From sequence record NC_008152.1: a stretch of 44,385 nt of DNA, one strand, 5' to 3'. The notes under the pieces are model-generated. The model was not told the origin of the DNA, made no database searches, and was given only the letters and a program-made list of their open reading frames with translations. Below, piece by piece: positions 2,353 to 44,385 of this stretch. Source of the stretch: Escherichia phage K1-5. The translations under genes and the position numbers were made by a program. Each line of letters begins with the position of its first letter. Position 1 is the first letter of the stretch.

Positions 2353-3237
2353 ATGACTACTGAAAACACCCTCGTGTCTGTCCGTGAAGCTGCAACCGCT
2401 GAAATCAAGCAACATTTAGACAATATCGGCACTTCTTACATCAAAGTAGGGGCTTGTCTGAATGAGTTACGCGGAGACTTTGAAGGTCAAAAAGAGTTTT
2501 TAGCCTATGTTGAAGCAGAGTTTGCCATTAAGAAGGCACAATGTTACAAGCTGATGAGTGTAGCCCGTGTCTTTGAAGGCGATGATCGCTTTAAAGGCGT
2601 GGCGATGCGTGTAATGCTGGCGCTTGTTCCTTTCGCTGATGAAAATATAATCATGGAGAAGGCCGCAGAACTCGCCGCAAATGGCAAGCTGGACACTAAT
2701 GCCGTAAACGCCCTGATTGAACCTAAGAAAGAGTCAAAGGCCGAAACGGTACAATCTAAGGCTGAGACAGTAAAACCGCAGGAGAACGCGACTGAGTCCG
2801 CAGAATCACATGAAATGCAAGCGCCGCAGGTAGTGCCACCCGCGAGCGAGCAGGAGTCCGACGAATCAGCACCTTGGGAAGAGGAAAGCAAACCGGAAGC
2901 GCCAAAGGCAGCTCCGATGGATAACACGGCTAATACTGAGAATGCCGCTATTGCTGGTCTGCTGGCACAAATTAAAGCACTGACTGAGCAATTACAGGCA
3001 GCCAATGACCGCATCGCCTCCTTAAGTAGCGCACGCGAAAGCAAGAAGGCATCCGCACCTATGCTGCCGCAGTTCAAATCTTCCTGCTTCTACGCTCGCT
3101 TAGGCTTGAGCGCGGAGGAGGCAACGAAGAAAACAGCAGTTAACAAGGCACGCCGCGAACTGGTTAAGCTGGGATACGGTGAAGGCCATGAGGCATGGCC
3201 CTTAATCTCTGAGGCAGTAGAAGAGTTGACTAAGTAA
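2353..3237 (+). CDS. Hypothetical early protein (294 aa) with acidic low-complexity linker and C-terminal coiled coil
   Basis: Track ORF 2344 (GTG); ATG 2353 has AAGGTG RBS; SKAETV-type repeats in the middle. Confidence 0.6.
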   Translation: MTTENTLVSVREAATAEIKQHLDNIGTSYIKVGACLNELRGDFEGQKEFLAYVEAEFAIKKAQCYKLMSVARVFEGDDRFKGVAMRVMLALVPFADENIIMEKAAELAANGKLDTNAVNALIEPKKESKAETVQSKAETVKPQENATESAESHEMQAPQVVPPASEQESDESAPWEEESKPEAPKAAPMDNTANTENAAIAGLLAQIKALTEQLQAANDRIASLSSARESKKASAPMLPQFKSSCFYARLGLSAEEATKKTAVNKARRELVKLGYGEGHEAWPLISEAVEELTK

Positions 3238-3300
3238 CCTTATCGGTGGCATCTTCTTAGGTGTCACCTATTAAGGTTTCTTTCACTAGGAGTAAACAAG

Positions 3301-5928
3301 ATGCAAGGCCTACACGCTATTCAACTTCAACTTGAAGAAGAAATGTTTAACGGCGGTATCCGTCGCTTTGAAGCGGACCAACAACGCCAGATTGCATCCG
3401 GTAATGAATCAGACACGGCATGGAATCGCCGCTTATTGTCCGAGTTAATCGCGCCAATGGCTGAAGGTATTCAGGCATACAAGGAAGAGTATGAAGGTAA
3501 AAGAGGCCGTGCACCGCGTGCATTAGCTTTCATTAACTGCGTAGAAAACGAAGTGGCAGCATATATCACGATGAAAATCGTTATGGATATGCTGAACACG
3601 GATGTAACCTTGCAGGCTATAGCCATGAATGTAGCTGACCGCATTGAGGACCAAGTACGTTTTAGCAAGCTGGAAGGTCACGCCGCCAAATACTTTGAAA
3701 AAGTTAAGAAGTCACTTAAGGCAAGTAAGACTAAATCATATCGCCATGCGCACAACGTAGCGGTAGTGGCTGAGAAGTCAGTAGCTGACCGTGACGCTGA
3801 TTTCTCCCGCTGGGAGGCATGGCCTAAAGACACCTTGCTGCAAATTGGGATGACCTTGCTTGAAATCTTAGAGAATAGCGTATTCTTCAACGGGCAACCT
3901 GTCTTCCTCCGCACCTTGCGCACTAATGGCGGCAAACATGGTGTTTACTACCTACAGACTAGTGAACACGTAGGTGAGTGGATAACTGCATTCAAAGAGC
4001 ACGTAGCGCAACTGAGTCCTGCCTATGCTCCTTGCGTCATCCCTCCGCGTCCGTGGGTATCACCTTTTAACGGCGGTTTCCACACTGAGAAAGTAGCAAG
4101 CCGTATTCGTCTGGTAAAAGGAAACCGCGAACACGTCCGCAAGCTGACCAAAAAGCAAATGCCAGAGGTTTACAAGGCTGTTAACGCGTTGCAGGCGACT
4201 AAATGGCAGGTTAACAAGGAAGTTTTACAGGTTGTGGAAGACGTCATCCGTCTAGACCTAGGTTATGGTGTACCTTCCTTTAAACCACTCATTGACCGCG
4301 AGAACAAGCCAGCTAATCCAGTGCCGCTAGAATTTCAGCACCTACGGGGCCGTGAACTGAAAGAAATGCTTACGCCGGAACAATGGCAAGCCTTTATCAA
4401 CTGGAAAGGTGAATGTACTAAGCTGTACACCGCTGAAACTAAGCGCGGAAGCAAATCGGCGGCAACCGTTCGCATGGTTGGTCAGGCCCGTAAATATAGC
4501 CAGTTCGACGCAATCTACTTCGTGTATGCACTGGACAGCCGCAGCCGCGTCTACGCGCAATCTAGCACACTCTCACCGCAATCAAATGACTTGGGCAAGG
4601 CCTTGCTCCGTTTTACCGAAGGGCAGCGTCTTGATAGCGCTGAGGCGCTTAAGTGGTTTTTGGTGAACGGGGCTAATAACTGGGGTTGGGATAAGAAAAC
4701 TTTTGACGTGCGCACCGCTAACGTGCTGGATAGTGAATTTCAAGACATGTGCCGCGACATTGCAGCGGATCCGCTGACCTTCACTCAATGGGTAAATGCC
4801 GACTCCCCTTACGGCTTCCTTGCATGGTGCTTTGAATATGCGCGTTATCTGGATGCACTGGATGAAGGCACGCAAGACCAATTCATGACGCACCTCCCAG
4901 TCCATCAAGATGGTAGTTGTTCTGGTATCCAGCACTACAGTGCTATGCTACGCGATGCAGTAGGTGCGAAAGCAGTAAACCTTAAGCCCTCTGACTCTCC
5001 TCAAGATATTTATGGTGCCGTTGCGCAGGTAGTAATTCAGAAGAATTATGCATACATGAATGCAGAGGATGCGGAAACCTTCACTTCTGGCAGCGTGACT
5101 TTAACAGGTGCGGAGCTGCGTAGTATGGCTAGTGCGTGGGATATGATAGGAATCACTCGCGGCCTGACCAAAAAGCCCGTAATGACACTACCTTATGGCA
5201 GCACACGTCTAACCTGCCGTGAGTCAGTGATTGATTATATCGTTGATTTAGAAGAAAAAGAGGCCCAACGGGCTATTGCGGAAGGGCGTACCGCCAATCC
5301 TGTACACCCTTTTGATAATGACCGTAAAGACAGCCTGACACCTAGCGCAGCTTATAACTATATGACAGCTTTAATCTGGCCTTCTATTTCGGAAGTGGTT
5401 AAAGCCCCTATAGTGGCAATGAAAATGATTCGTCAGCTTGCCCGTTTCGCAGCTAAAAGGAATGAAGGCTTAGAGTATACCCTGCCTACTGGCTTCATCT
5501 TGCAACAAAAGATTATGGCTACTGATATGCTCCGCGTATCTACTTGCTTGATGGGAGAAATCAAGATGAGTCTACAGATTGAAACAGACGTAGTGGATGA
5601 AACGGCAATGATGGGCGCTGCTGCTCCTAACTTTGTGCATGGTCATGATGCCAGCCACCTTATCTTAACAGTCTGCGACCTTGTTGATAAAGGGATTACA
5701 TCTATCGCAGTTATTCATGACTCTTTTGGCACTCATGCAGGCCGTACAGCCGACCTTCGTGATAGCTTAAGGGCAGAAATGGTGAAGATGTATCAAGGCC
5801 GTAATGCACTGCAAAGCCTGCTAGATGAGCACGAAGAACGCTGGTTAGTTGATACCGGAATACAAGTACCAGAGCAAGGGGAGTTTGACCTTAACGAAAT
5901 CTTAGTTTCAGACTATTGCTTCGCATAA
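3301..5928 (+). CDS. T7-like single-subunit DNA-directed RNA polymerase
   Basis: 875 aa; [16 protein letters not shown] (motif A), IHDSFGTHA (motif C), C-terminal ...DYCFA; AGGAG RBS. Confidence 0.97.
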
Positions 5929-14589: not shown

Positions 14590-14610
14590 ATTTACTGGAC
14601 ACTATAGAAG
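14590..14610 (+). promoter_or_regulatory. Phage RNAP promoter (perfect consensus)
   Basis: atttactggacactatagaag; 15 nt downstream of a palindrome variant. Confidence 0.8.
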
Positions 14611-34000: not shown

Positions 34001-34247
34001 TCTACCTTCCGAACTCATTCAATCACGCTATGAAGCAGGTTTCCAAAGTAAGGGTCTGATTGACCAAATACCTCTGGTTGGCGTTGGTGCAGATGCAGTA
34101 AATCTGGCTAACTCAATCAAGAAGTATGCAGAAGGTGACACAGAAGGTGTAGATATCGCTAAGCGAGCACTCCGTCTTGTGCCACTTACCAATATAATAG
34201 GTGTCCAAAACGCATTGCGTTATGGCTTAGATGAACTGGAGGATTGA
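31062..34247 (+). CDS. Internal virion (core) protein, gp16-like
   Basis: 1061 aa; Gly/Ala-rich hydrophobic segment GWVGSVATIGAAVLDPVGWVAS; synteny. No obvious transglycosylase motif at the N-terminus. Confidence 0.7.
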   Translation: MEQDIKTNWAGYVQSTPEPFSIEAAPVSAPTIRQRNELQEQVLEAKADADILGAVGAAFQNEWLAFGGKRWYDRATADFTPQPDFEIQPEQREALRFKYGTDMMQTITEGVRSEDELNFRIQNADEDLERNKRIAQAGWVGSVATIGAAVLDPVGWVASIPTGGAAKVGLVGRAVRGAIAAGVSNAAIESVLVQGDMTRDLDDIMVALGSGMAMGGVIGAVARGRATKLSEQGDDRAASIVRSADAGDRYVRAVADDSIGAMRVKGAEVLTEGVFDISSKSEDLLKTLQREGNAIDMTPRRWAGTMSALGTVVHSSKDASIRGLGARLFESPQGLGMQKASASLMQNTNLNRLKSADMNRFNDGFDLWLKENNINPVAGHTNSHYVQQYNEKVWEAVRIGMDESTPKSIRMAAEGQQAMYREALALRQRSGEAGFEKVKADNKYMPDIFDSMKARRQFDMHDKEDIIELFSRAYQNGARKIPKEAADEIARAQVNRVADATLTGKLSFEKAMSGQTKAEYEAIMRKAGFSDEEIEKMIEALDNKETRDNISNRAKMSLGLDVTQEYNGIRMRDFMNTNVEELTDNYMKEAAGGAALARQGFSTYQAALNAIDLVERNARNAAKDSKASLALDEEIRQMREGLRLIMGKSIDADPQAISTKMMRRGRDITGVLRLGQMGFAQLGELANFMGEFGIAATTMALGKQFRFTSKALRNGDGFFRDKNLAEVERMVGYIGEDNWLTTKGARPDEFGDVTTVRGMMAHFDQSMNSIRRAQTNLSLFRMAQGSLERMTNRQIALSFIDHLEGKKIIPQKKLEELGLTQEFMTNLQKHYDANSKGSGLLGFDTMPYAMGETLANAIRRKSGLIIQRNFIGDEGIWMNKALGKTFAQLKSFSLVSGEKQFGRGIRHDKIGLAKKTAYGFALGSIVYAAKAYVNSIGREDQDEYLEEKLSPKGLAFGAMGMMSTTAVFSLGGDFLGGLGVLPSELIQSRYEAGFQSKGLIDQIPLVGVGADAVNLANSIKKYAEGDTEGVDIAKRALRLVPLTNIIGVQNALRYGLDELED

Positions 34248-35209
34248 TGAGTTATACTTTCACAGAACATACAGCCAATGGTACGCAAGTCACCTATCCT
34301 TTTAGCTTTGCTGGTAGGGATAAAGGTTATCTTCGTGCCTCAGATGTGATAGTGGAGTCTCTTCAAGGTAACACTTGGATTGAAGTTACATCTGGCTGGC
34401 AACTAACTGGCACGCACCAGATTACTTTTGATGTAGCACCAGTTGCAGGTTTGAAGTTCCGTATTCGAAGGGAAGTACAAAAAGAATATCCATACGCTGA
34501 GTTTGACCGTGGTGTTACCTTGGATATGAAGTCTTTAAATGGTTCTTTCATTCATATACTGGAGATTACACAGGAGTTACTTGACGGGTTTTATCCAGAA
34601 GGATACTTCATTAAACAGAATGTAAGCTGGGGCGGCAATAAGATTACTGATTTGGCTGATGGCACAAATCCGGGAGATGCAGTAAATAAAGGGCAGCTTG
34701 ATGCCATCGACAAGAAGCATACAGATTGGAACGCCAAACAGGACATTGAGATTGCTGGCCTTAAGGCTGGTATGACTTCTGGTATTGCGCACAGAACTGT
34801 TCCTTGGTACACGATAGCCCAAGGTGGTGAGATTTCCGTAAAACCACCTTATGAATTTCAAGATGCACTAGTTTTCCTTAATGGGGTATTGCAGCACCAA
34901 ATTGTAGGCGCATACTCTATAAGCAACAACACTATCACTTTCGCAGAGCCGCTTGTGGCTGGTACAGAGGTGTATGTGCTGATTGGTAGTCGTGTGGCTA
35001 CATCTGAACCTAATATTCAGTTGGAGTTGAACTTTGACTTAGTAGAAGGCCAACAAGTAGTACAGATTGGCTCTGCATTTAAGTACATTGAGGTCTACCT
35101 TGATGGATTATTACAACCTAAACTTGCTTATCAGGTAGACGGTGACATTGTTACTTTCTCAGAAAGAGTACCAGAATGCCGGATGACTGCTAAGATTATC
35201 ACAGCATAA
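34247..35209 (+). CDS. Tail-fibre adaptor protein (homologue of the T7 gp17 N-terminal tail-attachment domain)
   Basis: 320 aa; GNKITDLADGTNPGDAVNKGQLDAI resembles T7 gp17 RRIVNLANAVDDRDAVPFGQL; ATG overlaps upstream stop. Confidence 0.75.
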   Translation: MSYTFTEHTANGTQVTYPFSFAGRDKGYLRASDVIVESLQGNTWIEVTSGWQLTGTHQITFDVAPVAGLKFRIRREVQKEYPYAEFDRGVTLDMKSLNGSFIHILEITQELLDGFYPEGYFIKQNVSWGGNKITDLADGTNPGDAVNKGQLDAIDKKHTDWNAKQDIEIAGLKAGMTSGIAHRTVPWYTIAQGGEISVKPPYEFQDALVFLNGVLQHQIVGAYSISNNTITFAEPLVAGTEVYVLIGSRVATSEPNIQLELNFDLVEGQQVVQIGSAFKYIEVYLDGLLQPKLAYQVDGDIVTFSERVPECRMTAKIITA

Positions 35210-38798: not shown

Positions 38799-38948
38799 AT
38801 GAAAAAGCTGTTTAAGTCTAAGAAGGTTGTAGGTGCACTGGTTGCACTTGTTATTGCTCTTGTTTCTGTAGGTCTTGGTGTAGACCTTGGCTCTGGCACG
38901 GAATCCTCTGTGACAGATGTGGTCTGCCAAGTGATCACCTGTGAATAA
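38799..38948 (+). CDS. Small membrane protein (49 aa) in lysis cassette
   Basis: AGGGAG RBS; MKKLFKSKKVVGALVALVIALVSVGLGV has one TM helix; between endolysin and spanin candidates. Confidence 0.35.
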   Translation: MKKLFKSKKVVGALVALVIALVSVGLGVDLGSGTESSVTDVVCQVITCE

Positions 38949-39162
38949 GTTTCTAGAAGTTCTGGCAGGTCTTATTGGCCTGCTTGTCTCTGCTAAGAAG
39001 AAACAAGAAGAGAAGGAGGCACAAAGTGAAGCGAATCATGTTAGTGACAACCCTTCTGATTGGTTCGCTGACCACTTCCGGGTGTCAGCAGGCGTTACCA
39101 GAGAAAGCAATGGTGAAACCTCTGAGGCCGACGCTGACGGCAGTTTACGAGGTAGACGATAA
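38941..39162 (+). CDS. Candidate i-spanin (Rz-like), 73 aa
   Basis: GTG start in track; N-terminal TM FLEVLAGLIGLLVSA then charged region; an o-spanin-like ORF starts inside it. Short for an i-spanin. Confidence 0.35.
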   Translation: MNKFLEVLAGLIGLLVSAKKKQEEKEAQSEANHVSDNPSDWFADHFRVSAGVTRESNGETSEADADGSLRGRR

Positions 39163-39235
39163 GGTCTGCTTTAGTAAGCCTGACGCTACAAAACTTGGTT
39201 TGTACATTCTCTCGCTAGAACGCGGATACAATTAA
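39026..39235 (+). CDS. Candidate o-spanin (Rz1-like) lipoprotein
   Basis: Track ORF 38975; GTG 39026 6 nt after AAGGAGG (or ATG 39038); signal MKRIMLVTTLLIGSLTTSGC with lipobox-like TSGC. Confidence 0.5.
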   Translation: MKRIMLVTTLLIGSLTTSGCQQALPEKAMVKPLRPTLTAVYEVDDKVCFSKPDATKLGLYILSLERGYN

Positions 39236-39264
39236 TACATAGCTTTATGTATCAGTGTCTTACG

Positions 39265-39285
39265 ATTTACTGGACACTATAGAAG
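39265..39285 (+). promoter_or_regulatory. Phage RNAP promoter (perfect consensus) upstream of tailspike cassette
   Basis: atttactggacactatagaag. Confidence 0.8.
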
Positions 39286-39366
39286 AGGTAAGATAGCGCC
39301 GTTCTTTTGAGCGGCCTATTACTAGCCAATCTTCATAGGGAGGGTTGGAAAGTAATAGGAGATAGC

Positions 39367-41265
39367 ATGGCTAAATTAACCAAACCTAATACTGAAGGAA
39401 TCTTGCATAAAGGACAATCTTTGTATGAGTACCTTGATGCGAGAGTTTTAACATCAAAGCCGTTTGGTGCTGCAGGTGACGCCACTACTGATGATACGGA
39501 GGTTATAGCTGCTTCATTAAACTCTCAGAAAGCTGTCACAGTCTCAGATGGTGTATTCTCTAGCTCTGGTATTAACAGTAATTACTGTAACTTAGACGGC
39601 AGGGGTAGTGGCGTGCTAAGTCACCGTTCAAGTACAGGTAACTACTTAGTATTTAACAATCTACGTGCAGGTCGCTTAAGTAATATTACGGTAGAAAGTA
39701 ATAAGGCGACTGATACAACTCAGGGACAGCAGGTATCCCTTGCTGGTGGAAGTGATGTTACTGTAAGTGACGTTAACTTCTCAAACGTTAAAGGTACTGG
39801 TTTCAGTTTAATCGCATACCCTAATGATGCGCCACCTGATGGACTTATGATTAAAGGCATTCGAGGTAGCTATTCCGGCTATGCTACTAATAAGGCAGCC
39901 GGATGCGTACTTGCTGATTCCTCAGTTAACTCCCTCATAGATAACGTCATTGCTAAGAACTACCCTCAGTTCGGAGCAGTAGAGTTGAAAGGTACAGCCA
40001 GTTACAACATAGTCAGTAATGTTATAGGGACAGATTGCCAGCATGTAACTTACAACGGCACTGAAGGGCCAATAGCTCCTTCTAATAACCTTATCAAGGG
40101 GGTGATGGCTAATAACCCTAAGTATGCAGCGGTTGTTGCAGGCAAAGGAAGTACGAACTTAATCTCAGACGTGCTCGTAGATTACTCAACTTCTGATGCT
40201 AGGCAGGCTCATGGTGTTACAGTAGAGGGTTCTGATAACGTCATAAATAATGTGCTTATGTCAGGATGTGATGGTACTAACTCTTTAGGACAAGGGCAGA
40301 CTGCTACAATTGCACGCTTTATAGGTACAGCTAATAACAACTATGCGTCTGTATTTCCTAGCTACAGTGCTACAGGTGTTATTACTTTCGAATCCGGCTC
40401 TACCCGTAACTTCGTAGAGGTAAAGCACCCTGGCAGGAGAAACGACCTTCTCAGTTCTGCTAGTACTATTGACGGTGCAGCTACTATTGACGGCACTAGT
40501 AATAGTAACGTAGTGCACGCACCTGCCTTAGGGCAGTACATAGGTAGTATGTCAGGTAGGTTCGAATGGCGGATTAAGTCCATGTCACTCCCTTCAGGCG
40601 TTCTTACTTCTGCTGATAAGTACAGAATGCTTGGAGATGGTGCTGTGTCATTAGCTGTAGGTGGGGGCACTTCTTCTCAAGTTCGCCTATTTACTTCTGA
40701 TGGTACTTCTCGGACAGTGTCCCTCACCAACGGTAACGTGCGTCTTTCTACCAGTAGCACAGGCTTTTTGCAGTTAGGTGCTGATGCAATGACCCCAGAC
40801 AGTACTGGTACATACGCATTAGGTTCCGCCAGCCGAGCATGGTCTGGCGGTTTTACTCAAGCAGCATTCACTGTTACCTCAGATGCTCGGTGTAAAACAG
40901 AACCTCTTACTATCTCAGATGCCTTACTGGATGCTTGGTCTGAAGTTGACTTTGTGCAGTTTCAGTATTTGGATCGTGTTGAGGAGAAGGGTGCAGACTC
41001 AGCTAGATGGCACTTCGGTATCATCGCTCAGCGAGCTAAGGAGGCTTTCGAACGTCACGGTATAGATGCACATCGCTATGGCTTCTTGTGCTTCGACAGT
41101 TGGGATGATGTATACGAGGAAGATGCCAATGGCTCTCGTAAACTGATTACACCAGCAGGTTCCCGCTACGGTATTCGTTACGAGGAAGTACTGATATTAG
41201 AGGCTGCGTTGATGCGGCGGACTATTAAGCGTATGCAGGAAGCACTAGCTTCCCTGCCTAAGTAA
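39367..41265 (+). CDS. Tailspike 1: beta-helix polysaccharide depolymerase (K5-lyase-like) with C-terminal self-cleaving chaperone domain
   Basis: Track ORF 39307; ATG 39367 gives 632 aa; repetitive beta-helix-like rungs (NVIAKN, NIVSNVIG, NVINNVLMS); C-terminal SDARCK ... HFGIIAQRAKEAF resembles the peptidase S74 intramolecular chaperone. Confidence 0.7.
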   Translation: MAKLTKPNTEGILHKGQSLYEYLDARVLTSKPFGAAGDATTDDTEVIAASLNSQKAVTVSDGVFSSSGINSNYCNLDGRGSGVLSHRSSTGNYLVFNNLRAGRLSNITVESNKATDTTQGQQVSLAGGSDVTVSDVNFSNVKGTGFSLIAYPNDAPPDGLMIKGIRGSYSGYATNKAAGCVLADSSVNSLIDNVIAKNYPQFGAVELKGTASYNIVSNVIGTDCQHVTYNGTEGPIAPSNNLIKGVMANNPKYAAVVAGKGSTNLISDVLVDYSTSDARQAHGVTVEGSDNVINNVLMSGCDGTNSLGQGQTATIARFIGTANNNYASVFPSYSATGVITFESGSTRNFVEVKHPGRRNDLLSSASTIDGAATIDGTSNSNVVHAPALGQYIGSMSGRFEWRIKSMSLPSGVLTSADKYRMLGDGAVSLAVGGGTSSQVRLFTSDGTSRTVSLTNGNVRLSTSSTGFLQLGADAMTPDSTGTYALGSASRAWSGGFTQAAFTVTSDARCKTEPLTISDALLDAWSEVDFVQFQYLDRVEEKGADSARWHFGIIAQRAKEAFERHGIDAHRYGFLCFDSWDDVYEEDANGSRKLITPAGSRYGIRYEEVLILEAALMRRTIKRMQEALASLPK

Positions 41266-41272
41266 GCAACAG

Positions 41273-41294
41273 GCAGTGCGTAAGCACTGCTTTT
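41273..41294 (+). terminator. Intrinsic-type terminator in the 85-nt spacer between tailspike genes
   Basis: gcagtgc-gtaa-gcactgc then tttt. Confidence 0.6.
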
Positions 41295-41350
41295 AGCGCA
41301 ACTTTTCTTAAAGGTTATCACGGTGGTAGCCTTTCAGAAAAGGAGGTTAC

Positions 41351-43786
41351 ATGATTCAAAGACTAGGTTCTTCATTAGTTAAATTCAAGAGTAAAATAGC
41401 AGGTGCAATCTGGCGTAACTTGGATGACAAGCTCACCGAGGTTGTATCGCTTAAAGATTTTGGAGCCAAAGGTGATGGTAAGACAAACGACCAAGATGCA
41501 GTAAATGCAGCGATGGCTTCAGGTAAGAGAATTGACGGTGCTGGTGCTACTTACAAAGTATCATCTTTACCTGATATGGAGCGATTCTATAACACCCGCT
41601 TCGTATGGGAACGTTTAGCAGGTCAACCTCTTTACTATGTGAGTAAAGGTTTTATCAATGGTGAACTATATAAAATCACGGATAACCCTTATTACAATGC
41701 TTGGCCTCAAGACAAAGCGTTTGTATATGAGAACGTGATATATGCACCTTACATGGGTAGTGACCGTCATGGTGTTAGTCGTCTGCATGTATCATGGGTT
41801 AAGTCTGGTGACGATGGTCAAACATGGTCTACTCCAGAGTGGTTAACTGATCTGCATCCAGATTACCCTACAGTGAACTATCATTGTATGAGTATGGGTG
41901 TATGTCGCAACCGTCTGTTTGCCATGATTGAAACACGTACTTTAGCCAAGAACAAACTAACCAATTGTGCATTGTGGGATCGCCCTATGTCTCGTAGTCT
42001 GCATCTTACTGGTGGTATCACTAAGGCTGCAAATCAGCAATATGCAACAATACATGTACCAGATCACGGACTATTCGTGGGCGATTTTGTTAACTTCTCT
42101 AATTCTGCGGTAACAGGTGTATCAGGTGATATGACTGTTGCAACGGTAATAGATAAGGACAACTTCACGGTTCTTACACCTAACCAGCAGACTTCAGATT
42201 TGAATAACGCTGGAAAGAGTTGGCACATGGGTACTTCTTTCCATAAGTCTCCATGGCGTAAGACAGATCTTGGTCTAATCCCTAGTGTCACAGAGGTGCA
42301 TAGCTTTGCTACTATTGATAACAATGGCTTTGTTATGGGCTATCATCAAGGTGATGTAGCTCCACGAGAAGTTGGTCTTTTCTACTTCCCTGATGCTTTC
42401 AATAGCCCATCTAATTATGTTCGTCGTCAGATACCATCTGAGTATGAACCAGATGCGTCAGAGCCATGCATCAAGTACTATGACGGTGTATTATACCTTA
42501 TCACTCGTGGCACTCTTGGTGACAGACTTGGAAGCTCTTTGCATCGTAGTAGAGATATAGGTCAGACTTGGGAGTCACTGAGATTTCCACATAATGTTCA
42601 TCATACTACCCTACCTTTTGCTAAAGTAGGAGATGACCTTATTATGTTTGGTTCAGAACGTGCAGAAAATGAATGGGAAGCAGGTGCACCAGATGATCGT
42701 TACAAGGCATCTTATCCTCGTACCTTCTATGCACGATTGAATGTAAACAATTGGAATGCAGATGATATTGAATGGGTTAACATCACAGACCAAATCTATC
42801 AAGGTGACATTGTGAACTCTAGTGTAGGTGTAGGTTCGGTAGTAGTTAAAGACAGCTACATTTACTATATCTTTGGTGGCGAAAACCATTTCAACCCAAT
42901 GACTTATGGTGACAACAAAGGTAAAGACCCATTTAAAGGTCATGGACACCCTACTGATATATACTGCTATAAGATGCAGATTGCAAATGACAATCGTGTA
43001 TCTCGTAAGTTTACATATGGTGCAACTCCGGGTCAAGCTATACCTACTTTCATGGGTACTGATGGAATACGAAATATCCCTGCACCTTTGTATTTCTCAG
43101 ATAACATTGTTACAGAGGATACTAAAGTTGGACACTTAACACTTAAAGCAAGCACAAGTTCCAATATACGATCTGAAGTGCAGATGGAAGGTGAATATGG
43201 CTTTATTGGCAAGTCTGTTCCAAAGGACAACCCAACTGGTCAACGTTTGATTATTTGTGGTGGAGAAGAGACTTCGTCCTCTTCAGGTGCACAGATAACT
43301 TTGCACGGCTCTAATTCAAGTAAGGCTAATCGTATCACTTATAACGGAAATGAGCACCTATTCCAAGGTGCACCAATCATGCCTGCTGTAGATAACCAGT
43401 TTGCTGCTGGTGGACCTAGTAACCGATTCACTACCATCTACCTAGGTAGTGACCCTGTTACAACTTCAGATGCTGACCACAAGTACAGTATCTCTAGTAT
43501 TAATACCAAGGTGTTAAAGGCTTGGAGCAGGGTTGGTTTTAAACAGTATGGTTTGAATAGTGAAGCAGAGAGGGACCTTGATAGCATACACTTCGGTGTC
43601 TTGGCTCAGGATATTGTAGCTGCTTTTGAAGCTGAAGGGTTGGATGCCATTAAGTATGGAATTGTGTCCTTCGAAGAAGGTAGGTACGGTGTGAGGTATA
43701 GTGAAGTTCTAATACTAGAGGCTGCTTATACTCGTTATCGTTTAGACAAGTTAGAGGAGATGTATGCCACTAATAAAATCAGTTAA
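41351..43786 (+). CDS. Tailspike 2: endosialidase (endo-N-acetylneuraminidase) with C-terminal self-cleaving chaperone domain
   Basis: 811 aa; AGGAGG RBS; two Asp-boxes SGDDGQTW and SRDIGQTW; C-terminal SDADHK ... HFGVLAQDIVAAFEAEG parallels the C-terminus of tailspike 1. Confidence 0.85.
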   Translation: MIQRLGSSLVKFKSKIAGAIWRNLDDKLTEVVSLKDFGAKGDGKTNDQDAVNAAMASGKRIDGAGATYKVSSLPDMERFYNTRFVWERLAGQPLYYVSKGFINGELYKITDNPYYNAWPQDKAFVYENVIYAPYMGSDRHGVSRLHVSWVKSGDDGQTWSTPEWLTDLHPDYPTVNYHCMSMGVCRNRLFAMIETRTLAKNKLTNCALWDRPMSRSLHLTGGITKAANQQYATIHVPDHGLFVGDFVNFSNSAVTGVSGDMTVATVIDKDNFTVLTPNQQTSDLNNAGKSWHMGTSFHKSPWRKTDLGLIPSVTEVHSFATIDNNGFVMGYHQGDVAPREVGLFYFPDAFNSPSNYVRRQIPSEYEPDASEPCIKYYDGVLYLITRGTLGDRLGSSLHRSRDIGQTWESLRFPHNVHHTTLPFAKVGDDLIMFGSERAENEWEAGAPDDRYKASYPRTFYARLNVNNWNADDIEWVNITDQIYQGDIVNSSVGVGSVVVKDSYIYYIFGGENHFNPMTYGDNKGKDPFKGHGHPTDIYCYKMQIANDNRVSRKFTYGATPGQAIPTFMGTDGIRNIPAPLYFSDNIVTEDTKVGHLTLKASTSSNIRSEVQMEGEYGFIGKSVPKDNPTGQRLIICGGEETSSSSGAQITLHGSNSSKANRITYNGNEHLFQGAPIMPAVDNQFAAGGPSNRFTTIYLGSDPVTTSDADHKYSISSINTKVLKAWSRVGFKQYGLNSEAERDLDSIHFGVLAQDIVAAFEAEGLDAIKYGIVSFEEGRYGVRYSEVLILEAAYTRYRLDKLEEMYATNKIS

Positions 43787-43914
43787 GCAAGCTGCTGTAC
43801 TCCAGAACACAGAAGAGCTTATTCAATCAGGACGTGACCCTAAGCAGGCTTATGCCATTGCCAAGGATGTTCAACGTCGTGCCATGAAGAAACCTTCTGC
43901 ATCTTCTGCGTAAG

Positions 43915-43975
43915 CAGGTTAATATCTTAGTATAAACAAGGGCAGACTTAGGTTTGTCCTTAGTGTATTCCAAAG
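43915..43975. repeat. Three CTTAG(T/G) repeats immediately left of the right terminal repeat
   Basis: tcttagtat, acttaggtt, ccttagtgt at about 43925, 43946, 43958. Confidence 0.5.
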
Positions 43976-43983
43976 GAGGTAAC

Positions 43984-44112
43984 ATGCTGAAAGATGGTTG
44001 GGTTTCATATGACCCTACAGACCCTAAGAATTGGCTACAGGTTATCGCTATAGCTTGTGCAGGTAGCCTATTGGCTGCCCTGATGTATTCATTATGGATG
44101 TACACAAAGTAA
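43984..44112 (+). CDS. Small membrane protein (42 aa) at right genome end
   Basis: AAAGGAGG RBS 5 nt before ATG; VIAIACAGSLLAALMYSLWM is a TM helix; ends about 40 bp before the terminal repeat. Confidence 0.4.
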   Translation: MLKDGWVSYDPTDPKNWLQVIAIACAGSLLAALMYSLWMYTK

Positions 44113-44151
44113 CCAAAGTCAAAATTTTGATGTAGGCGTGTGTCAGCTCTC

Positions 44152-44385
44152 TCGCCCTCGCCCTCGCCGGGTTGTCCCCATAGGGTGGCCTGAGGGAATC
44201 CGTCTTCGACGGGCAGGGCTGATGTACTCCTTGTCTAGTACAAGGGAGGCGGAGGGAACGCCTAGGGAGGCCTAGGAATGGCTTAGTGGTGGACAAGGTG
44301 ATTACCTTAGTGAAGCCTCTTAGTGCATTCCTGAGGCCATTCAGGGCGTTTATGAGGGATTGACAGGGTGTGAGGGCGTGGGCTA
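44152..44385. repeat. Right direct terminal repeat (234 bp)
   Basis: Exact copy of 1..234 read by eye; window ends exactly at the repeat end. Confidence 0.95.

Follow-up and report, generated by a model that had tools for sequence, protein, structure and literature searches.

Escherichia phage K1-5 (NC_008152.1; the whole stretch of 44,385 nucleotides analysed here is henceforth referred to as the window) carries two large consecutive genes at positions 39265–43786, and the question that they raise is how a single phage comes to be equipped for hosts with two different capsules, K5 and K1. The answer is almost certainly that this region encodes the receptor-destroying apparatus of the coliphage, a K5 lyase (gp46) and a K1 endosialidase (gp47) that are both mounted on the adaptor protein gp37. 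Nothing that we met in the analysis contradicts this explanation.

Two depolymerase genes behind a phage promoter

An exact-sequence look-up returned three proteins of the window as residue-for-residue identical to those of Escherichia phage K1-5, the phage that a preliminary description, made from the letters alone, had offered as a possible source. The first 25 kb of the window are ~94–96% identical to other Vectrevirus genomes, and its ends form an exact terminal direct repeat of 234 bp (positions 1–234 are the same as 44152–44385), so that we are dealing with a complete linear podovirus genome. The preliminary description had also placed two consecutive large genes behind a consensus phage promoter and read them as a dual depolymerase cassette, in which a lyase-type beta-helix protein is followed by an endosialidase. 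All of these elements are present at the coordinates listed below, and both enzyme assignments are borne out by exact protein matches and by near-identical or homologous solved structures.

39265–39287, + strand: SP6/K1-5-type phage RNA polymerase promoter, 23 nucleotides, ATTTACTGGACACTATAGAAGAG (exact 23-mer)
39367–41265, + strand: gp46, K5 lyase tailspike, 632 amino acids, 66.7 kDa precursor (exact match to AAG59821.1/YP_654147.1)
41351–43786, + strand: gp47, K1 endosialidase tailspike, 811 amino acids, 90.4 kDa precursor (exact match to AAG59822.1/YP_654148.1)
41804–41827 and 42548–42571, + strand: Asp-boxes of gp47 (S-x-D-x-G-x-x-[WFY] pattern)
34247–35209, + strand: gp37, adaptor, 320 amino acids (exact match to K1-5 gp37, AAR90079.1)

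The first tailspike, gp46, is nearly the same protein as the crystallised K5 lyase KflA (PDB 2X3H), with ~7 differences over 505 aligned residues (~98.6% identity). Since its Pfam scan returned Peptidase_S74 only (residues 505–565) and no pectate-lyase match of its own, the beta-helix fold that had been anticipated for this protein rests on the near-identity to the crystal structure. At positions 206, 208 and 229 gp46 has E, K and Y, as does 2X3H; E206, K208 and Y229 are the residues that Thompson et al. in 2010 are said to have implicated in the lyase active site. As the start of the gene we use the ATG at 39367, which has AGGAG eight bases ahead and yields the deposited protein of 632 residues; it replaces the TTG at 39307 that appeared in the mechanically generated list of open reading frames (ORFs).

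For gp47, the Pfam scan recovered End_N_terminal, End_beta_propel (E = 1e-225), End_beta_barrel and End_tail_spike as well as Peptidase_S74, and the four endosialidase families (PF12218, PF12217 with 748.7 bits, PF12195 and PF12219) all scored far over their cut-offs. Residues 38–705 align end to end with the endoNF structures 1V0E and 3GVL, which, together with the four domains, upholds the earlier assignment of this protein as an endosialidase. Five residues of endoNF are reported as critical, either for catalysis or for substrate binding (H350, R549, E581, R596 and R647; PMC12632334), and five out of five are conserved in gp47, as H140, R339, E371, R386 and R437. The two Asp-boxes already pointed out in the preliminary description, SGDDGQTW (residue 152) and SRDIGQTW (residue 400), are the sole two occurrences of the pattern in the protein. 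The cleavage of alpha-2,8-polysialic acid by the K1-5 endosialidase is on record in the literature summarised in PMC5380687.

Two genes do not necessarily make two working enzymes: one spike could be functional and the other a decaying relic, leaving the phage with a single capsule specificity. Decay of a slot (we refer to the places of gp46 and gp47 as slots 1 and 2) does occur in the K1-5 group, as slot 1 of the sister phage K1E holds, instead of a lyase, a gp46 of only 111 amino acids (3103–3438 of the K1E stretch compared) that is usually taken as a relic. Its likeness to the lyase is confined to the N-terminal end, where the first ~65 residues align with 37% identity, MAKLTKP included. 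We rejected its description as a simple truncated lyase, little beyond the docking end being kept at the protein level. In K1-5, however, both ORFs are full length, the lyase has only those ~7 substitutions per 505 residues relative to crystallised KflA, the endosialidase retains its five key residues and both Asp-boxes, and a dual K1/K5 specificity of the phage has been reported from experiment (PMC5380687). A phage with one live and one dead spike is, in our judgement, extremely improbable, and we proceed with two functional depolymerases as the preferred reading.

Regarding their expression, the 23-mer ATTTACTGGACACTATAGAAGAG at 39265–39287 is identical to another copy at 14590, and the window contains seven matches to it (allowing up to 3 mismatches), all of them on the + strand, versus none in 100 shuffles. 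It is therefore one of the SP6-type phage-polymerase promoters of the genome, in keeping with the consensus phage promoter that had been claimed ahead of the cassette. K1-5, AAPEc6, VEc3, K5 and K1E hardly differ in the promoter, the 5' untranslated region (UTR) and the first codons, and the homologous sequence in the K5 record Y10025 is annotated as a promoter for the lyase. Between 38900 and 44385, sites resembling sigma-70 promoters or intrinsic terminators were no commoner than in shuffles and, given this result for the sigma-70-like sites, we propose no host-type promoter inside the cassette.

C-terminal chaperones and docking on the adaptor

How the two enzymes would be matured and attached to one and the same tail can be followed through their opposite ends, where the features below were located.

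40879–41262, + strand: Peptidase_S74 intramolecular chaperone of gp46; its SDARCK motif contains Ser505, the cleavage site, and Lys510 (PF13884, E = 1.5e-14)
43466–43783, + strand: Peptidase_S74 intramolecular chaperone of gp47; its SDADHK motif contains Ser706 and Lys711 (PF13884, E = 4.6e-10)
39367–39387, + strand: MAKLTKP, adaptor-docking heptapeptide at the N-terminus of gp46 (identical to the peptide in PMC6872550)
41351–41383, + strand: MIQRLGSSLVK, adaptor-docking undecapeptide at the N-terminus of gp47 (identical to the peptide in PMC6872550)

The C-terminal regions of the two spikes (127 amino acids in gp46 and 106 in gp47) are related to each other, with 33% identity (E = 5e-23) and an insertion of ~20 residues in the lyase domain relative to that of gp47. 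Against Peptidase_S74 (PF13884), for which the Pfam cut-off is 22 bits, they score 54.4 bits (gp46) and 40.1 bits (gp47). Both also match solved chaperones: the last 127 residues of gp46 resemble the chaperone domains of phi29 gp12 (3GUD), endoNF (3GW6) and T5 pb1 (4UW8), residues 588–764 of gp47 match the stalk and chaperone structure of endoNF (3GW6, E = 6e-58), and 6EU4 is also included among the chaperone-structure matches of the spike S74 domains. The serine of the motif is position 1 of the S74 match in both spikes (SDARCK at 505, SDADHK at 706), and the lysine follows at a spacing of five residues in both (S505/K510 in gp46, S706/K711 in gp47). Related domains of roughly 100 residues with an S-D-x-x-x-K motif were precisely what the preliminary description had reported for these C-termini, and their homology to S74 chaperones, the lack of which it had named among the grounds for refutation, was found for the two of them.

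It may be asked whether these domains are removed at all. Auto-chaperone domains that remain uncleaved exist, an example being the C-terminal fin of the P22 tailspike (PMC4690869), and the C-terminal ~100 residues might likewise escape cleavage and serve the mature spikes in receptor binding or stabilisation. The placement of the Ser and the Lys, five residues apart and at the first position of the S74 profile in both spikes, argues against retention, and so do the crystal constructs of mature forms, which stop at or just before that Ser. The 2X3H chain terminates exactly at Ser505, and mature endoNF chains end one residue ahead of the equivalent of gp47 Ser706 (gp47 Ser706/Lys711 correspond to endoNF Ser911/Lys916). 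The mass of the lyase points in the same direction. The precursor has a predicted mass of 66.7 kDa, which a cut at Ser505 would reduce to 52.1 kDa, in agreement with the published mature form of 52 kDa (the entry for K1-5 ORF46 reads '67/mature form 52'; PMC5380687). We accordingly give retention of the domains a negligible chance and prefer cleaved chaperones. In T5 pb1 and K1F, the Lys five residues downstream activates the Ser, and the chain is cut once the triple beta-helix has correctly formed; K1E, K1-5 and K5 are listed with the phages for which this Ser/Lys cleavage is presumed (PMC4690869).

At the other end of the spikes, Pfam detected a T7 gp17-like N-terminus in neither gp46 nor gp47. 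This homology lies in gp37, residues 3–153 of which match Phage_T7_tail with 28.3 bits (cut-off 25.2), and the earlier proposal that it belongs to a separate adaptor gene (34247–35209) and not to the spikes was correct. The adaptor as a whole matches PDB 7Y22, a 'tail adaptor protein', with E = 1.6e-82. In K1-5, MAKLTKP ties the lyase to the middle of the adaptor, and MIQRLGSSLVK ties the endosialidase to its C-terminal part (PMC6872550).

From these elements a plausible working order can be put together. The phage polymerase would transcribe both tailspike genes from the promoter at 39265, probably a late one. Homology shows gp46 to be a trimeric beta-helix lyase, which would cut the K5 (heparosan) capsule via beta-elimination, and gp47 to be an endosialidase, likewise trimeric and with a beta-propeller of six blades, which would hydrolyse the alpha-2,8-polysialic acid of the K1 capsule. 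In either spike the S74 chaperone is predicted to nucleate the folding of the trimer and then to remove itself through the Ser/Lys pair, the cleavage being taken from the literature. The spikes would dock through MAKLTKP and MIQRLGSSLVK on separate sites of gp37 (the binding, again, is that described in the literature), and the T7 gp17-like N-terminus of gp37 would plug into the tail. Each virion should consequently bear both enzymes, as co-display is part of the K1-5 literature, and it is because both are on every virion that the phage would infect K1 as well as K5 E. coli. The expectation that two depolymerases open up K1 and K5 hosts agrees with the published specificity of K1-5 (PMC6872550, PMC5380687).

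The inter-spike junction and the cassette borders

Between the two spike genes lies a short stretch that is the sole point going beyond the known system, and which may merit a small follow-up. It is given here together with the small ORF at the distal border of the cassette.

41266–41350, + strand: inter-spike junction, 85 nucleotides, two hairpins (RNA folding and conservation)
41271–41292, + strand: first hairpin (HP1) and U-run, GGCAGUGC-GUAA-GCACUGCU then UUUU
~41302–41342, + strand: second hairpin (HP2), the 3' arm of which extends into the gp47 Shine-Dalgarno sequence
43764–43913: ORF of 49 amino acids overlapping the last 23 nucleotides of the endosialidase gene (similarity resumes at ATG 43764)

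The RNA of 41262–41352 folds into two hairpins with a minimum free energy of -37.3 kcal/mol (z = -6.1), and all nine representative junctions (9/9) individually fold to the same two-hairpin shape. When these nine sequences were aligned, 93.6% of the cells were paired, versus 35–50% with slid partners. HP1 presents changes on both sides in four of its nine pairs; HP2 is mostly conserved in sequence, and its version in a Raoultella phage differs yet is fully complementary. Given that there are nine sequences only, and that the structure was derived from one of them, this covariation is suggestive rather than conclusive evidence of a structurally conserved element with compensatory changes. The first description of K1-5 reportedly noted dyad symmetries in the junction, and we know of no functional test of it.

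As to its distribution, the junction was found in 107 phage records, comprising phages of Escherichia, Salmonella, Proteus, Pectobacterium, Lelliottia, Klebsiella, Citrobacter and Raoultella, and it is annotated as a terminator in one of them. An Rfam scan of 38900–44385 at E <= 1 gave no match, junction included, and a degenerate HP2 pattern was recovered from viral contigs at 10 loci only.

HP1 with its U-run could act as a partial terminator or as a hairpin that stabilises the transcript, and HP2 might control access to the ribosome-binding site of gp47, by which the ratio of the two spikes would be set. It is conceivable, albeit rather doubtful, that the junction is a functional two-hairpin RNA element setting this ratio and at the same time a handle for recombination by which spikes pass from phage to phage, a phi92-like myovirus included. 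This myovirus, 'alia' (MN850632), has a copy of the junction at 4001–4077, with degenerate Shine-Dalgarno sequence and start codon, directly after a protein of 574 amino acids with a pectate-lyase-like N-terminal motif. The copy looks like the relic of a podovirus spike cassette that was transferred across phage families.

Three stretches are conserved beside genes that differ, namely the promoter with the 5' UTR and first codons, the 85-nucleotide junction, and the sequence downstream from ATG 43764. The junction and the first codons of slot 2 are near-invariant even though the gene that follows varies: K1-5, K1E and AAPEc6 have an endosialidase there, VEc3 a spike of 567 amino acids, and K5 yet another gene. 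Conserved borders of this kind (promoter and 5' UTR, junction, and the small gene from 43764) would allow the gene in either slot to be exchanged through homologous recombination.

Cassette matches were obtained in 137 of the 50,697 records of the phage collection, nearly all of them in the endosialidase part only, while the lyase gene is present in 52 records. The closest relatives of the cassette are AAPEc6 (99.0%) and ULINTec7 (93.2%). These are also the only two records in which lyase and endosialidase occur together, and the K1 plus K5 combination is therefore uncommon.

Two observations concern the neighbouring small ORFs. The one of 49 amino acids at 43764–43913 has no Pfam match, and the homologous frame of K1E contains an in-frame TAA. 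Just upstream of the cassette, the overlapping small ORFs 38941–39162 and 39038–39235 resemble a spanin pair, with an N-terminal membrane helix in one and a candidate lipoprotein signal, MLVTTLLIGSLTTSGC, in the other; a strict lipobox regular expression gave no match to this signal.

Comparison with known systems

The cassette is the already well-characterised adsorption apparatus of K1-5 and, as such, the finding is already known. Compared with gp37, gp46 and gp47 of that phage we have the same object, with identical proteins and docking peptides and no differences detected at the protein level. The apparatus was reportedly worked out by Scholl et al. in 2001 and 2004 and by Leiman et al. 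in 2007. Its architecture with two spikes and its host range of K1 plus K5 are described in PMC6872550 and PMC5380687. K1-5 is a textbook case of a host range broadened by means of two capsule depolymerases on one adaptor, and it is used as a model in the engineering of host range in phages and for therapeutics based on depolymerases. Finding its cassette again adds no new biology, and shows that such cassettes are recognisable from raw sequence.

Among lyases, the nearest system is KflA of phage K5A (2X3H; Y10025), with 98.5% DNA identity across the gene and the same promoter, 5' UTR and downstream junction. Phage K5 differs in slot 2, where a different gene, beginning MLQRLSTK..., takes the place of the endosialidase. 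A second arrangement is the fused K5 lyase tailspike of phages vB_EcoP-PM139, PM129 and R1 (PDB 9VVR), which shares a 90% cluster with gp46. Residues 31–631 of gp46 (39457–41262) are near-identical, chaperone included, to residues 242–842 of this tail spike protein of 843 amino acids, which has ~240 extra N-terminal residues where gp46 has a docking segment of ~30 residues. The breakpoint between the two falls directly after the adaptor-docking peptide region.

On the endosialidase side, gp47 of phage K1E shares a 90% cluster with that of K1-5 (97% DNA identity). The endoNF of phage K1F (1V0E, 3GVL and 3GW6) has the same propeller, barrel, stalk and chaperone domains and the same key residues, but it carries a T7 gp17-like N-terminal anchor of its own (PMC6872550), whereas gp47 docks on gp37 through its peptide of 11 residues.

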